This document shows positions 54,801 through 59,593 of a DNA stretch of 64,000 nt, piece by piece (within the stretch, counting starts at the first letter, position 1; each line of letters starts with the position of its first letter). Source of the DNA: Flavobacteriales bacterium (GTDB lineage Bacteria > Bacteroidota > Bacteroidia > CAIKAF01); contig JANWKT010000013.1 of assembly GCA_025451235.1 (NCBI GenBank), positions 2,260 through 66,259 of the forward strand. Reading direction: 5' to 3'. Both the position numbers and the translations under genes were made by a program. The notes under the pieces were generated by a model. The model worked only from the letters and a program-made list of their open reading frames with translations, searched no databases and had not been told where the DNA came from.

Positions 54801-56510
54801 CTATCTAAAGGTATAATCAACTCCGGTTACTTGCGACAATAAAGTTTCGGGAGCATCTAATATTTGTGCATTTTTTGAAGGAACCGGTGTAACCGGTGAA
54901 TTGGCAGCAAGATATTCTAATAAGACCTCATGTATCGTAGTACTTGTATTCTGAGCATCGGCCACCCCTTTTATCCGGCAAAGCATATCCAAAGGATCAC
55001 CATCCCGTTCACAGGATAAAATGGAATACTGCTTTTTCAGGTCAATGGATTCGCCTTTACATGTGATGCTTTTTACCCTAGATCCCATTGGTGCAAAAGC
55101 ATGAAAACCTACTTCCATTCCTTTAAATTTAACCATCCATCCACCAATTCGCTTGGAGGCATCTTTGGCAAATACGTTGTTCAACTCTTTCTCCAGCCAT
55201 TCACCTATTTGCAGACCTGTTACCTTGGCTGTTCTTAGCACATGATCTACTGGTAACATATCAAATATAAAACCATTTGTAATAGGGATATTTCCGCTAC
55301 TATCTGGTGTTGCACGAGGAGGGCAGAACCTGAACCCATTTACCAAGGCAATGTCTATTTCCGGAAATTTCCATTTCATGGCATTTAATATCAACGTATC
55401 GATAGGATTTTCTACCACAAAGTACCGATATAACGGAATGGTACTATAACCTACTACGGTATTGATATGTTCTTTATAAGTAGATTCTTTTTCTTCCAAT
55501 AGCTCCTGAATTTTACCATCTGACTTTATTTGAGAAGTGGTTACTTCTAACAACTCATATTCATCTTTTGTTATTATTCCATTTTCTATGGTTAAATCCA
55601 ATTTACCTATGAACGAGCCAAATGCACCGGGCTCCACTACCTTTGCATATTTACATTCTATAGGTTTGCGAACTCTTTCGTGAGTATCGCCACCAAGGAT
55701 ATAATTAACACCATCACATTCGGGCATATTGGCCAAAGCAATTTGTTGTGATAAACCTAAATGGGCAATGATGATAACGAAACTGCATTGTTCCTGATTC
55801 TTTAACACATCCACGTAATGAGCTAAATTTTCCTCTGGTTTTGTATAAAGGATTCCTTTGCTATAGCTGGGGTTTTGGCGGGTAGGCACCCAAGGGTCGG
55901 TATAACCCAAAAAACCAATCTTCGCTCCGGCAACATTCCAAATAGTATATGGCTGGAAGATCAATTCGCCCTTTTTACCCTCTCCCAGATCATGGTACAT
56001 ATTAGCGCAAATTTTGGGGGCATTCAACGATCCCAATAATGTTTGCATGTTTTTTTTACCAAACACTACTTCCCAATTACCTGGCAAGTACAAATCGTAG
56101 TTCAAAGCATTTAAAATAGGAACGAAAGCTCTTCCGGTGGTTTTTACACTTAGTTCACTTCCCTGGAACATATCACCAGTATCAATAATAAAGGTATTTG
56201 GGTTTTTCTTTTTTAGCTTTTGTAACATGGATGCGATATATGCATAGCCGCCTGTTTTGCGAAAAACAGCCTGGTTATTTTCCCAGAATAATTCATCGTG
56301 AGGGTGAATTTGGCAATGAACGTCGGTCGTTTGAAGGATGCTTACCGTGGTTGACTTTGAATTCAAGGTATCATCCTTGTTCTCTTCATTTTCAGAGGCC
56401 AACATTTCATGGCTGTCACCAGTCATGCCTGACAAGGGTGAAACAATTGCAGCACCAGCCCCTAGCGCAGCGATCGATTTGATAAAATTTCTTCTGCTCT
56501 TCTTTTTCAT
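54801..56510 (-). CDS. Tat-exported SoxB-like metallophosphoesterase/5'-nucleotidase-family hydrolase
   Basis: SRRNFIK Tat motif; TDVH, DTGD, GNWE, AHLG, GGDTHE, GFRF and IGGWMV motifs, which are closer to the SoxB pattern (GHWE, GGHTH, GFRW, GGDMV) than to UshA (GNHE). Confidence 0.78.
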   Translation of the reverse strand: MKKKSRRNFIKSIAALGAGAAIVSPLSGMTGDSHEMLASENEENKDDTLNSKSTTVSILQTTDVHCQIHPHDELFWENNQAVFRKTGGYAYIASMLQKLKKKNPNTFIIDTGDMFQGSELSVKTTGRAFVPILNALNYDLYLPGNWEVVFGKKNMQTLLGSLNAPKICANMYHDLGEGKKGELIFQPYTIWNVAGAKIGFLGYTDPWVPTRQNPSYSKGILYTKPEENLAHYVDVLKNQEQCSFVIIIAHLGLSQQIALANMPECDGVNYILGGDTHERVRKPIECKYAKVVEPGAFGSFIGKLDLTIENGIITKDEYELLEVTTSQIKSDGKIQELLEEKESTYKEHINTVVGYSTIPLYRYFVVENPIDTLILNAMKWKFPEIDIALVNGFRFCPPRATPDSSGNIPITNGFIFDMLPVDHVLRTAKVTGLQIGEWLEKELNNVFAKDASKRIGGWMVKFKGMEVGFHAFAPMGSRVKSITCKGESIDLKKQYSILSCERDGDPLDMLCRIKGVADAQNTSTTIHEVLLEYLAANSPVTPVPSKNAQILDAPETLLSQVTGVDYTFR

Positions 56511-56519
56511 TCTTAATAA

Positions 56520-56939
56520 CTAAAAGCCTCCTTTTATATAACTCCAGCCTTCTTCTTGCCTTTCAACAATTTCCGCTATGCCTGCGGGTACAATTTCCGC
56601 TTCCGGCAACAAATCTTCTGCTTTAATACTTCGTTGGGTCATGGTATTTTGACAAGCTACAAACTTAACTCCCTTTTTTTTCAATTCCATAATGGCCTTT
56701 ACATGCTTCGACTTAGTGGTGAGCAAATAATCTATTCCATTGTTATAGCATACCACCTCAATTTGAGCACTTGGCCAATGATCCGTAATGTTTTGCAATT
56801 GCTTTGTAAAAGCTTTTTGCTGCATACTATCATTCGCATTGGTAAATTGAAATACTATTTTATGCTGAGTTGTTTGAGCAAATGTAGTTGTTACAATACT
56901 CATGAAAATAACCAGTGACCATAATTTTAATTGGCTCAT
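56520..56939 (-). CDS. Exported DsrE/DsrF-like sulfur-relay family protein
   Basis: Signal peptide ending TTFAQ; HKIVFQ, IEVVCY, FVACQNTM (conserved Cys) and VPAGIAEIVERQEEGWSYIK motifs. Confidence 0.88.
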   Translation of the reverse strand: MSQLKLWSLVIFMSIVTTTFAQTTQHKIVFQFTNANDSMQQKAFTKQLQNITDHWPSAQIEVVCYNNGIDYLLTTKSKHVKAIMELKKKGVKFVACQNTMTQRSIKAEDLLPEAEIVPAGIAEIVERQEEGWSYIKGGF

Positions 56940-56946
56940 ATATGTA

Positions 56947-58053
56947 CTATTTTGATTTTTCGTTTTTTTTCTTTTCATCTGCAATGAGTTGGAACGGTCC
57001 AAATTTATGCTGTTCTTCCGAGAATTTGTCGGCATAAGGGCCAAATGGATGGTCAACCGGCTTTTCGGCTATGTTAGGCCAATCGGCACTTAGGTTTTTT
57101 GATGGCCTGGGTTGAGAATTAATGAAAGCGGCTAAATCCCATGCTTCTTCATCACTCAACAATGGGTTTTGAAAGGTGGCTCCCTGAGGCATATTGTATT
57201 TGATAAAACCCGCAAAACGACTCATGCGATATAATCCGGCACCATGGTTATACGAATTTTTACCCCAGAGAGGAGGATAGGTATATTCAATTTTATCTGC
57301 TGCCAATAAACCTTCTCCATTTGCCTGATGACAACTCTGACATTTTACCACAAATAATTCTTTGCCTTTTACAGGATCGGCGGGCCTATCTAAATAAGGA
57401 AGTTCAAATATCCCCGACCCTTTCGGTTTTTCTCCTTTTTTTACGTCTTTACCAATAAACTCAATATACGACTTGATGGCTTGCATCTCTTTACTATCTA
57501 AGGCCAAGGCTGTGCCATTGAGGCTTCGCTCTATACAGTCGTTGATGCGCTTGTAGATATCTTCTTCTTTACCACTCCTTGCCCTGTATTTTGGATAAGT
57601 GGAAAACACAGCTCCGTAATTGTTGCCCCATGCTTTTGTTCCTGCTTCTAAATGGCAATTTTGGCAATTCATTCCATTTGTTATTTTCGCCACGCTACCA
57701 TTTGGACCTAAATATTTTGCGGTATGTGCTATTAATTCTTGGCCATACTCAATTTGCGATTTGATATTGCTATCGGGTGGAATGGAATTGATATCAGCGG
57801 CGGACCAATAGGTGCTTAATTCTTCCTTTAGCTTTTTTTCGTTTTGCCATTTTTCGTACTCTATTTTTTTATTTTGTTCAGCATGAATTTCTGATTTGCT
57901 TTTTTTGAACAATGCGGTGAGATCTGGTTGGTAAATAGCAAAAAGGGTAATGATGATCATGCTAAAAAGCATGAGAGCAATGACTCCCACCAATCGACGA
58001 ATGCTTTTTACTAAGCTATCAATGATGATCTTGTCCTTTTCTTTTTCCTCCAT
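56947..58053 (-). CDS. tsdA: Diheme cytochrome c, thiosulfate dehydrogenase/tetrathionate reductase family
   Basis: CQNCH and CQSCH heme motifs; YPKYRAR; RINDCIERSLNG with the active-site Cys; PPLWG..SYN.GAG; NMP; N-terminal TM anchor. Confidence 0.88.
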   Translation of the reverse strand: MEEKEKDKIIIDSLVKSIRRLVGVIALMLFSMIIITLFAIYQPDLTALFKKSKSEIHAEQNKKIEYEKWQNEKKLKEELSTYWSAADINSIPPDSNIKSQIEYGQELIAHTAKYLGPNGSVAKITNGMNCQNCHLEAGTKAWGNNYGAVFSTYPKYRARSGKEEDIYKRINDCIERSLNGTALALDSKEMQAIKSYIEFIGKDVKKGEKPKGSGIFELPYLDRPADPVKGKELFVVKCQSCHQANGEGLLAADKIEYTYPPLWGKNSYNHGAGLYRMSRFAGFIKYNMPQGATFQNPLLSDEEAWDLAAFINSQPRPSKNLSADWPNIAEKPVDHPFGPYADKFSEEQHKFGPFQLIADEKKKNEKSK

Positions 58054-58192
58054 ACTTTCTTTGGTGCGGTAGCTCCCCTAAAATATAGGTTCACTCGCCA
58101 GGGATAGTGTTAAGTAAAAATAAGTAAAAAGATGAAGCCCTCGTCCAAAAACAGATCAGAAAATGTTCAAGATGACTTGGTGAGATAGAGGG

Positions 58193-58528
58193 CTATTTTG
58201 TGATCCCCGATTTTTTTGCAAAGAAGGCAGCAAAGTCCTGCATATCCTGCGCCAGCTCCTGATCGTTGGTAGCCCTTACCATGGCCTCACTCATGGAGAT
58301 GATGTTCTGATATACGAAGTAATACATTTCTTCTACCATCAGATCTTTGTTCCACAGATCAATACGCATAGAATTGTTTTCCTTTACATCCCAAAAGCTC
58401 AACATCATGGCTTTTACTTCGCGGTCTTGTTGAATGCCGCTATCGGTTGCGATCCAGCTCAATCTTTCCGGATTGTTGTTTTCATCGCTACCTATTTTAA
58501 TATTGATCTCTGATTCTTTTTTTACCAT
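58193..58528 (-). CDS. gldC: Gliding motility protein GldC
   Basis: DENNNPE..W.A, KAMMLSFWD and RIDLW motifs; directly downstream of gldB. Confidence 0.9.
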   Translation of the reverse strand: MVKKESEINIKIGSDENNNPERLSWIATDSGIQQDREVKAMMLSFWDVKENNSMRIDLWNKDLMVEEMYYFVYQNIISMSEAMVRATNDQELAQDMQDFAAFFAKKSGITK

Positions 58529-58536
58529 GTTCTTTC

Positions 58537-58592
58537 TGTTATTCGTTATCCGTTAACCGTTATCCATGAACGAATATCAGTTAACGAATAAC
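58537..58592. repeat. Inverted heptamer tandem repeat (CGTTATC units) between gldB and gldC
   Basis: tgttatt cgttatc cgttaac cgttatc ... aacgaat atcagtt aacgaat aac. Confidence 0.7.
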
Positions 58593-59593
58593 TATTTTTT
58601 CGGTTTATAACGGCTTGAATTCAATATCTGTTTTGAGTTATTGTTCATCAATAATTGTTCTACCGTTATATTTTTATTGTTCTTCATAAAAGCCGTAACC
58701 ACTTTCCATCCGAGCCATATTCCGGTCCTGCCTGGTGACTCGTCGGGCATGCCGGCGCTAAAAGGAGCTTCGCCGCAATATTTATTGATGAGTTTAAAAT
58801 CTTTGGTATACAATAATTTTTTTTCTACAAAAAACGACCACATCATAAACTCATTGCTATTGCAAAACTTTAATTGACTGGTCGTGTACCCGAATTTAAT
58901 GGAATCATGTACATAGGGCAATGTTTTATCTACTAAATACATGATCTTTCCCTGATAGATCATTTCATCCAGCATATCAAGCCTGGGCTGTCCATTGTCG
59001 AACTCAGCACTGATCCATCCACGCATCAGGTCGGTTACCATGTACTCTTTTTCTTTTCTGTATTTAATATATTCAGGTAAATGCGCATAGTATTTGCTTG
59101 ATTTACCTAGGTACTGATCCAAAGAGATGCAGATAGTACTGTCTAAAGCCACTACCACATTGTTAAAACCGAAGTTATAGGTAAGTACATTTGGAATGGG
59201 TCTGTTGGGCAAATAATATTTATAGTATTTAAAGGCCTGGGTTACTTCTTTTTTGAAACCTTCCAGGTCGGCAAATTTAGTGGCGACTTCCTGATGTAAT
59301 TCCTGGATATCCTTGTCGAATAAAAATGCCTTGATATATACCTGGGCGGTACTGTCCTGTAAACTTGCAATGCGGGTAAGATTGCTAAAATACAATTCAG
59401 TAAAGTAGGGGTATTTTTGATCGAGTTTTTGCAGGCTTTCCCATGAAACGGAATCTTTTTTAAGCGTTTCCACCTCCTGGTCGAAACGGATCAGATCAAT
59501 ATTTACCTCGATTTTTGATACATCCGGGACCTTTTTGCCTCCACAGGCAACCAGGAACAAGAGGGGTAAAAGCAGGAGATTGATTCGTTTCAT
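58592..59593 (-). CDS. gldB: Gliding motility lipoprotein GldB
   Basis: Lipobox LVAC; RFDQ, ISLDQYLG, MIYQGK, SPGRTGIWLGWKVV and SRYKPKK motifs. Confidence 0.92.
   Translation of the reverse strand: MKRINLLLLPLLFLVACGGKKVPDVSKIEVNIDLIRFDQEVETLKKDSVSWESLQKLDQKYPYFTELYFSNLTRIASLQDSTAQVYIKAFLFDKDIQELHQEVATKFADLEGFKKEVTQAFKYYKYYLPNRPIPNVLTYNFGFNNVVVALDSTICISLDQYLGKSSKYYAHLPEYIKYRKEKEYMVTDLMRGWISAEFDNGQPRLDMLDEMIYQGKIMYLVDKTLPYVHDSIKFGYTTSQLKFCNSNEFMMWSFFVEKKLLYTKDFKLINKYCGEAPFSAGMPDESPGRTGIWLGWKVVTAFMKNNKNITVEQLLMNNNSKQILNSSRYKPKK

Follow-up and report, generated by a model that had tools for sequence, protein, structure and literature searches.

We analyzed a three-gene locus in a 64,000-nucleotide (nt) stretch of DNA from a Flavobacteriales bacterium (assembly GCA_025451235.1, contig JANWKT010000013.1, positions 2,260 to 66,259 of the forward strand), hereafter the window. 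The locus encodes a diheme cytochrome of the TsdA family, a secreted DsrE-family protein, and a SoxB-like metallohydrolase exported by the twin-arginine (Tat) route, and the operon probably allows thiosulfate to be oxidized outside the cytoplasm with no need for the usual Sox carrier. Its features, in window positions, are as follows.

58053..56947, minus strand: tsdA, 368 amino acids (aa); membrane-anchored diheme thiosulfate dehydrogenase/tetrathionate reductase (function predicted from sequence)
56939..56520, minus strand: secreted DsrE-family gene of the MTH1491/ST0148 subtype, 139 aa counted from the ATG; Cys96 in FVACQNTM
56510..54801, minus strand: Tat-exported SoxB-like metallohydrolase gene, 569 aa; PGNWE and GDTHE motifs
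58054..58192, minus strand: intergenic region of 139 nt between gldC and tsdA, likely the promoter region of the operon

All three open reading frames (ORFs) are co-oriented on the minus strand. The tsdA/dsrE junction reads TAG-tacatat-ATG, a gap of 7 nt, and the dsrE/hydrolase junction reads TAG-ttattaaga-ATG, a gap of 9 nt; a scan of the two junctions found a consensus terminator or promoter in neither. In the program-made ORF list, dsrE is begun at a TTG farther upstream and overlaps tsdA; the ATG start gives a signal peptide. No sigma-70 consensus site was found in 58054..58192 by a scan that leaves out Bacteroidota promoter types, and the GC content of the operon is similar to that of its surroundings. 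Pfam and NCBIfam scans of the flanks placed gldB and gldC, likewise on the minus strand, upstream and DUF5684 downstream, with no sox gene or tsdB adjoining the operon. The gliding motility genes gldC and gldB (window 58193-59593) lie directly upstream of tsdA. A sequence-only reading of the window had described three co-oriented genes separated by 7 and 9 nt, had assigned their products to TsdA, DsrE, and a SoxB-like hydrolase with export signals, and had noted no sox gene or tsdB beside them; the sequence, the family models, and the flank scans bear out all of this. The three genes form one operon, real and conserved.

The three encoded proteins

TsdA starts with a hydrophobic transmembrane anchor, read from its sequence, and a linker of about 80 aa, followed by the diheme domain with two CxxCH motifs (C130-x-x-C133-H134 and C238-x-x-C241-H242). 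In all 56 aligned Bacteroidota homologs, residues C130, C133, H134, C173, C238, C241, H242, N287, M288, and P289 are invariant. C173 lies in RINDCIERS, which aligns with RIGDCFERS of A. vinosum TsdA, and in this RxxDCxERS context we take it to be the axial ligand of heme 1. YNMP aligns with H(K/N)MP of the A. vinosum enzyme and places Asn-Met at heme 2. The closest match in the Protein Data Bank (PDB) is the K208N variant of A. vinosum TsdA (4wqc), with an E value of 3.6e-44 over residues 122-318. The protein scored 44.1 bits against Pfam PF21342 (SoxA/TsdA; cut-off 27), through which it is also homologous to SoxA, and a second cytochrome c domain is present. Judged by these matches and heme-binding residues, the first protein belongs to TsdA. 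Its C-terminal tail (residues 324-353) is conserved in the Bacteroidota group, with invariant D324, W325, P326, K331, D334, H335, P336, F337, H349, K350, G352, and P353; window positions 56947-57084 encode residues 324-368, and the alignment with the A. vinosum TsdA structure, which covers chain residues 41-236, ends short of the tail.

The DsrE protein, which scored 47.5 bits against Pfam PF02635 (cut-off 22.7), is encoded by the sole PF02635 gene in the genome and begins with a signal-peptide-like segment ending TFA-QT. Its closest solved relatives are MTH1491 (PDB 1l1s; E value of 5e-16, or 1.4e-24 in a profile search) and ST0148 (PDB 2pd2; 1.3e-21 with the profile); neither DsrEFH nor TusBCD was among the solved structures that the profile retrieved. 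All 57 sequences aligned keep Cys96, which forms one of only 4 invariant columns and aligns with the cysteine of MTH1491 and ST0148, as does the C-terminal GW.Y motif. The two deposited chains (113 and 108 residues, respectively) are named hypothetical proteins and differ from the window protein, which alone carries the N-terminal signal-peptide-like extension.

The hydrolase carries a twin-arginine motif (SRRNFIK) and scored 17.5 bits on the NCBIfam TAT signal model (cut-off 16.7) and 19.4 bits on Pfam TAT_signal, under the cut-off of 22.7. Its Pfam domains, Metallophos (PF00149) and 5_nucleotid_C (PF02872), make up the two-domain layout common to SoxB and nucleotidases. The top NCBIfam model was SoxB (TIGR04486), with 242 bits against a cut-off of 550 and a match spanning model positions 108-555 only, while UshA and NadN gave 75.3 bits (cut-off 600) and 71.5 bits (cut-off 436), respectively. 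Among solved structures, the nearest by sequence was Thermus thermophilus SoxB (E value of 3e-30), followed by the putative nucleotidase 3ivd (1.7e-22). When the SoxB model was run over 401 Bacteroidota genomes, 17 genomes of one family scored 829-858 bits and all others at most 331; the clade of the window hydrolase scored 219-269. An AlphaFold model (mean predicted local distance difference test score of 89.9) retrieved SoxB 4uwq first in Foldseek (template-modeling [TM] score of 0.78), with nucleotidase 3ivd near-equal (TM score of 0.74).

In a maximum-likelihood tree of 27 rows, with the N-domain of the genome's own 5'-nucleotidase as outgroup, the periplasmic clade and a clade of about 475 aa together were sister to canonical SoxB (support 98/96), and the window hydrolase lay outside the canonical clade. 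All 87 sequences compared share W146, which occupies the place of the catalytic His of nucleotidases, and R362 and R394 are common to all SoxB-like clades, canonical SoxB included. Other features separate the groups, as follows.

Motif III: PGNWE in the window's clade; GHWE in canonical SoxB; GHW(D/E) in the 475-aa clade; GNHD in the genome's own nucleotidase
Motif V: GDTHE in the window's clade; GHTH in canonical SoxB; (G/S/A)HTH in the 475-aa clade; GHTH in the genome's own nucleotidase
Insert of about 42 residues after motif I: in canonical SoxB only; absent from the window's clade, the 475-aa clade, and the genome's own nucleotidase
Loop with two invariant cysteines (C500 and C511): in the window's clade; in neither canonical SoxB nor the 475-aa clade

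By its model scores, tree position, and motifs, the hydrolase is not a canonical SoxB and is best described as a member of a SoxB-like sister family. The sequence-only reading had placed it on the SoxB side, and the top model, the tree, and W146 agree, as it did not group with the sole nucleotidase outgroup. The cysteine loop, CER(D/E)GDP..LCR (residues 500-511; window 54978-55013), may form a disulfide or a functional cysteine pair. The separate 475-aa clade (L043-L045, L143-L147, and L087:9329-10489) has no signal peptide and scored 287-331 bits on the SoxB model, above the window's clade; it adjoins a secreted DsrE in L045 and L087, and L045 also holds several thioredoxin-fold genes.

An ordinary periplasmic nucleotidase or phosphoesterase, whose place beside tsdA and dsrE would be meaningless, could equally be assigned only Metallophos and 5_nucleotid_C by Pfam; relatives of the hydrolase are publicly annotated as 5'-nucleotidase or 2',3'-cyclic-nucleotide phosphodiesterase, and 3ivd nearly equals SoxB as a fold match. 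However, an invariant Trp stands, as it does in SoxB, in place of the catalytic His of GNHE/D, the SoxB model exceeds UshA by 242 to 75 bits (UshA cut-off 600), TsdA is linked in 51 of 55 well-flanked loci (see below), and the genome owns a separate, split 5'-nucleotidase on another contig. From these features it is unlikely that the hydrolase is a nucleotidase, and the wider proposition that its position is meaningless is very improbable. The SoxB model matched only this hydrolase and the split 5'-nucleotidase in the window's genome. The latter (contig C20:84764-86440) comprises a 305-aa metallophosphatase gene with a twin-arginine-like N terminus and, adjoining it, a gene of 252 aa for a putative 5'-nucleotidase C-terminal domain, which begins with a hydrophobic segment and a cysteine.

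Conservation, linkage, and genomic setting

The survey of 401 Bacteroidota genomes, in which an ortholog of the hydrolase was defined by at least 41% identity, found the hydrolase in 18, TsdA in 57, and window-type DsrE in 30 genomes. TsdA was present in 16 of the 18 hydrolase-bearing genomes versus 41 of the 383 without an ortholog. As for the remaining two, G147 is N-masked at the spot, with a TsdA C-terminal fragment at the edge, and G219 has no TsdA. In one genus (four surveyed genomes, L028-L031), the ortholog (63-68% identity) has as neighbors a penicillin-amidase-like gene and one for a cytochrome c of 327 aa, and TsdA is located elsewhere in the genome; contig C24 of the window's genome encodes a version of this cytochrome with 46% identity.

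Beyond the survey, relatives of the hydrolase occupy at least 576 loci in species-representative genomes. A search with the hydrolase alignment had Acidobacteriota-like, Armatimonadota, Elusimicrobia, and Bdellovibrionota-like metagenome-assembled genomes among its matches, and Erythrobacter was not among them. Linkage was determined for the best 80 of the at least 576 loci, all 65-77% identical to the window hydrolase and from genomes that are related rather than independent; named records among them were Flavobacterium, Chitinophagaceae, Ferruginibacter, Daejeonella, Crocinitomicaceae, Haliscomenobacter, and Saprospiraceae. Of the 80 loci, 47 have both TsdA and DsrE no farther than 3 kb from the hydrolase, 20 TsdA only, 4 DsrE only, and 9 neither. 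For the 55 loci flanked by at least 3 kb on each side, these numbers are 39, 12, 2, and 2, respectively. The 47 triplet loci follow the order tsdA-dsrE-hydrolase in 20 cases, tsdA-hydrolase-dsrE in 26, and another order in 1. Since the three genes stay together through rearrangement, we regard the triplet as a functional unit. Chance adjacency was considered and rejected, as 39 of 55 well-flanked loci keep the triplet.

The window's genome is 98% complete, in 46 contigs. In it, the SoxY, SoxZ, and SoxC models had no match, the SoxA model matched only this TsdA, and the SoxX model found only a cytochrome below the cut-off. A full sox cluster elsewhere in the genome, with SoxY, SoxZ, and SoxC absent, SoxA matched by TsdA alone, and SoxX below the cut-off, was rejected as a candidate. 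SoxY was likewise found in none of 5 hydrolase-bearing relatives. Two further expectations of the sequence-only reading thus held: the triplet is conserved across Bacteroidota (39 of 55 well-flanked loci, two gene orders), and the search of the genome for soxYZ and soxAX found no SoxY or SoxZ, no SoxX over the cut-off, and TsdA as the only SoxA match.

In most relatives the triplet sits within a sulfur island. Its neighbors, identified by Pfam in the 46 loci with full 8-kb flanks, are as follows.

TsdA: 44 of 46 loci
YeeE/YedE-like halves: 39
DsrE: 36
Rhodanese: 35
OprD-like porin: 31
Metallo-beta-lactamase (MBL)-rhodanese fusion: 24
Crp regulator: 19
Thioredoxin: 17
TauE: 14

Peroxiredoxin-like genes also recur. 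The island of these relatives, with YeeE/PmpAB-like halves, rhodanese, an MBL-rhodanese that is persulfide-dioxygenase-like, TauE, and porin, would import and oxidize sulfane sulfur, as its gene content suggests. Because the triplet of relatives sits in this island instead, the copy in the window seems to have been relocated, or its island reduced; beyond the triplet, the genome has an MBL-rhodanese gene on contig C17 (37% identity).

The islands also bear on whether the operon would work in the reductive direction. On that account, TsdA would reduce tetrathionate, for respiration or the protection of periplasmic thiols, and DsrE and the hydrolase would repair or remove the thiosulfonate adducts made by tetrathionate on periplasmic cysteines. 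TsdA enzymes are said to be bifunctional (so the titles of Kurth 2016 and Liu 2013), and this, the Asn-Met at heme 2 with the K208N variant as closest match, and the recurring thioredoxin-like and peroxiredoxin-like genes all fit a detoxifying role. Yet genes for oxidation and import (MBL-rhodanese, rhodanese, YeeE halves, and TauE) are present in the islands of relatives and fit the oxidation of sulfur from thiosulfate, and deletion of tsdA in Erythrobacter flavus abolishes thiosulfate consumption (PMC7608252). We consider a reductive function improbable.

Proposed pathway and probable role of DsrE

We favor, with a probability of roughly 0.6, a SoxYZ-free periplasmic thiosulfate-oxidizing module of the E. 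flavus kind in which DsrE is a general trafficking partner. The membrane-anchored TsdA, identified by its family models, would oxidize two thiosulfate to tetrathionate and deliver two electrons to the respiratory chain. The SoxB-like hydrolase would then split the terminal sulfonate as sulfate off a thiosulfonate-type substrate, either free tetrathionate or polythionate or a Cys-S-thiosulfonate, leaving sulfane sulfur. The secreted DsrE could move sulfur in the periplasm via its single invariant cysteine, Cys96, most likely as a general acceptor or shuttle for sulfur in sulfane or thiosulfonate form and not as a dedicated substitute for SoxYZ. The net conversion would be of thiosulfate to sulfate, sulfane sulfur, and two electrons.

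The role given to DsrE draws on the company that it keeps. Among the 30 DsrE-positive survey genomes, 18 have the gene within about 2 kb of TsdA, and 13 of these have no SoxB-type hydrolase at the thresholds used. At such hydrolase-less loci, a Tat-signal protein of 225-235 aa without a Pfam family lies between or beside both genes (L157:6743-7426, L167:6952-7638 on the minus strand, L169:4414-5091, and L165:5267-5974) and could be an alternative partner enzyme. In one Bacteroidota family, one or two solute-binding proteins of the SBP_bac_11 family come after TsdA-DsrE (L159-L161, L164, and L168), and in the near-identical L159-L161 so does a PF03601 membrane protein, which hints at thiosulfate or sulfate binding or uptake.

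Window-type DsrE is missing, at E values of up to 1e-5, from at least 9 of the 18 hydrolase-bearing survey genomes. A PF02635 search of 10 hydrolase genomes without it had matches in 9, and 8 of the 10 carry, away from the hydrolase, a second secreted DsrE subfamily (about 180 aa, with a VCGQS motif and an N-terminal extension; L171-L180 and L182). In the 12 TsdA-only loci, the DsrE profile found no match within 8 kb in 11, and L114 has one about 6.7 kb upstream.

Metagenome contigs were selected by a distant hydrolase profile and two peptide patterns, and four purpose-built profiles divided them into groups: the canonical SoxB type has 31 loci, a non-Bacteroidota PGNWE type 27, the Bacteroidota type 21, and the 475-aa type 1. 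NCBIfam models were applied to L253 alone. The DsrE profile matched in 18 of the 31 canonical-type loci, and in 11 of the 12 with flanks of at least 3 kb. In L253, SoxX, SoxY, SoxZ, SoxA, and SoxB all exceeded the NCBIfam cut-offs and are followed by MBL-like, thioredoxin-like, and secreted DsrE genes. The DsrE proteins of canonical sox clusters retain the AC(G/E)N(T/S) cysteine. The secreted DsrE family thus goes with three kinds of enzyme, namely, TsdA alone, TsdA plus a SoxB-like hydrolase, and canonical SoxXYZAB. Because its members accompany SoxB-type enzymes with and without SoxYZ, and also TsdA alone, we read DsrE as a general acceptor or shuttle rather than as a SoxYZ substitute.

The sequence-only reading had instead cast DsrE as the carrier that replaces SoxYZ: Cys96 would be S-thiosulfonated by tetrathionate or by a SoxA-like action of TsdA, and the hydrolase would release sulfate and leave a persulfide. 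Several observations are in keeping with this, including the absence of SoxYZ from the genome, the retention of the triplet in 39 of 55 well-flanked loci in two gene orders, the single invariant cysteine of DsrE, the adjacency of DsrE to the 475-aa clade in L045 and L087 (L045 without TsdA), the homology of TsdA and SoxA (PF21342), and the thiosulfonation of Metallosphaera cuprina DsrE3A by tetrathionate (PMC4175335). However, secreted homologs that keep this cysteine occur alongside SoxY and SoxZ in true soxXYZAB clusters (L253 is the one checked with NCBIfam, and 18 of 31 canonical-type loci have a DsrE-profile match), 12 of the 55 loci have the hydrolase and TsdA without DsrE within 3 kb, at least 9 of 18 hydrolase genomes are without window-type DsrE at the above threshold, and 13 genomes pair TsdA with DsrE and have no SoxB-type hydrolase. 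Moreover, SoxY bears its cysteine on a flexible C-terminal arm, whereas that of DsrE presumably sits within the folded domain, as in MTH1491. Complex prediction of the mature hydrolase with 2 Mn and mature DsrE gave a score of 0.02 (mark 0.32), which weighs neither way. A replacement of SoxYZ by DsrE is therefore not favored, and we hold the carrier role to be doubtful. If it were true, which we likewise doubt, DsrE would add to SoxYZ a second class of periplasmic carrier for sulfur, unrelated to it, with a further function in the canonical Sox clusters of Campylobacterota-like organisms.

Several points count against the favored module, with DsrE as trafficking partner. The evidence for this locus, as for all Bacteroidota members, consists of sequence and gene context. 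Fold alone cannot tell SoxB from nucleotidase, as 3ivd scores almost as well, and the tree has one partial nucleotidase outgroup, canonical SoxB from one family, and long branches that were flagged. The metal site of the hydrolase is unlike that of SoxB and of nucleotidases, with N145 where SoxB has His and D275 where the others have His; because it departs from both, the chemistry of the enzyme could differ. Since TsdA enzymes are bidirectional and heme 2 has Asn-Met, the direction of the TsdA reaction is only inferred. The YeeE halves, TauE, and porin of the island were not detectable in the window's genome by tblastn. Lastly, conservation of the triplet does not extend to the non-Bacteroidota PGNWE clade: its 27 loci have DsrE in 4 and TsdA in 3, and 4 of the 5 with flanks of at least 3 kb have neither TsdA nor DsrE nearby (DsrE in 1), so the hydrolase family is not tied to TsdA everywhere.

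Comparison with known systems

A SoxYZ-independent pathway of TsdA and a SoxB-like protein has been shown genetically in E. flavus 21-3 by Zhang et al. 2020 (PMC7608252), in which a thiosulfate-induced cluster holds tsdA and three nucleotidase-like genes with a "SoxB domain." Deletion of tsdA ends thiosulfate use and sulfur formation, and deletion of one soxB-like gene ends sulfur formation while tetrathionate accumulates; the authors proposed direct hydrolysis of tetrathionate, with thiosulfate converted through tetrathionate to sulfate and zero-valent sulfur (PMC7608252). The evidence is genetic, with in vitro activity not among the results reported in the available text, which also ascribes sets of tsdA and soxB to Bacteroidetes as well as to Alpha-, Beta-, and Gammaproteobacteria (PMC7608252). 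DsrE is unmentioned (0 occurrences) in the available text of that paper (PMC7608252) and of its 2022 follow-up. Later surveys annotate by the E. flavus-type pathway (PMC12345210). SoxB itself hydrolyzes free trithionate (PMC5336275).

The genome analyzed here has the E. flavus-type gene set, with TsdA, a sub-canonical SoxB-like hydrolase, and no SoxYZ. The minimal carrier-free route from TsdA to a SoxB-like enzyme, as put forward by the sequence-only reading, stands insofar as the gene set is present without SoxYZ, but the route as such had already been published for E. flavus (PMC7608252). In the open-access literature searched, of which the supplement of PMC7608252 (Table S5 and Fig. S4) is not a part, no TsdA-DsrE-SoxB-like triplet and no periplasmic DsrE partner of TsdA is described. 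The pathway outline is already known; what is new here is the DsrE-type third component and the distinct SoxB-like clade.

For thiosulfate, a central intermediate in the sulfur cycle, the E. flavus pathway left one step to be explained, namely, the handling of tetrathionate by a SoxB-like enzyme without a carrier and the destination of the sulfane sulfur. The compact TsdA-DsrE-hydrolase set is widespread, with at least 576 matching hydrolase loci in species-representative genomes, and it points to a small secreted cysteine protein as a companion of periplasmic thiosulfate enzymes. The operon provides a concrete three-protein system for in vitro reconstitution, both of SoxB-like action without SoxYZ and of the role of a secreted DsrE. 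Because these hydrolases are mostly annotated as nucleotidases, surveys based on SoxB or KEGG may miscount thiosulfate-oxidizing capacity in heterotrophic Bacteroidota.

The closest known system is that of E. flavus. Both combine TsdA with a sub-canonical SoxB-domain metallophosphatase annotated as 5'-nucleotidase, SoxYZ is uninvolved, and an MBL-rhodanese (Sdo-like) gene is found in both; the E. flavus hydrolase (D0Y83_01365) is likened to the window hydrolase by its published description, not by sequence. The module of the window differs in having DsrE as a conserved third gene, a Bacteroidota host, and a membrane-anchored TsdA.

DsrE-family chemistry of the kind invoked by the sequence-only reading is known from Metallosphaera cuprina, in which DsrE3A reacts with tetrathionate to a Cys-S-thiosulfonate (Liu et al. 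2014; PMC4175335). DsrE3A, of the DsrE3A/TusA system, shares the DsrE-family cysteine but is cytoplasmic and belongs to another subgroup with Cys-X7-Cys, whereas the window DsrE is secreted and has one conserved cysteine.

Secreted DsrE proteins are also encoded beside SoxB-type hydrolases in sox clusters. In Sulfurovum indicum, dsrE-soxW-soxH1 adjoining soxABXY1Z1 are up 2.2- to 3.8-fold on thiosulfate (PMC10045233), and in Methylovirgula thiovorans HY1 a periplasmic DsrE-like gene lies in the sox operon, with a proposed function in sulfur transfer (PMC9371685). Metagenome clusters laid out like that of Sulfurovum carry homologs of the window DsrE with the same cysteine. In contrast to the window, the Sulfurovum and Methylovirgula clusters have SoxYZ and a canonical SoxB and no TsdA, and the role of DsrE in them is only proposed.

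Compared with canonical Sox, the module shares a SoxA homolog in TsdA, a hydrolase sister to SoxB with the same Trp (HWE/NWE) and two arginines, a periplasmic location, and Tat export. It differs in that SoxY and SoxZ are absent from the genome and SoxX has no match over its cut-off, the hydrolase falls under the SoxB cut-off and has no insert of about 42 residues, Asn and Asp stand where canonical SoxB has two His, and the hydrolase has the additional cysteine-pair loop.

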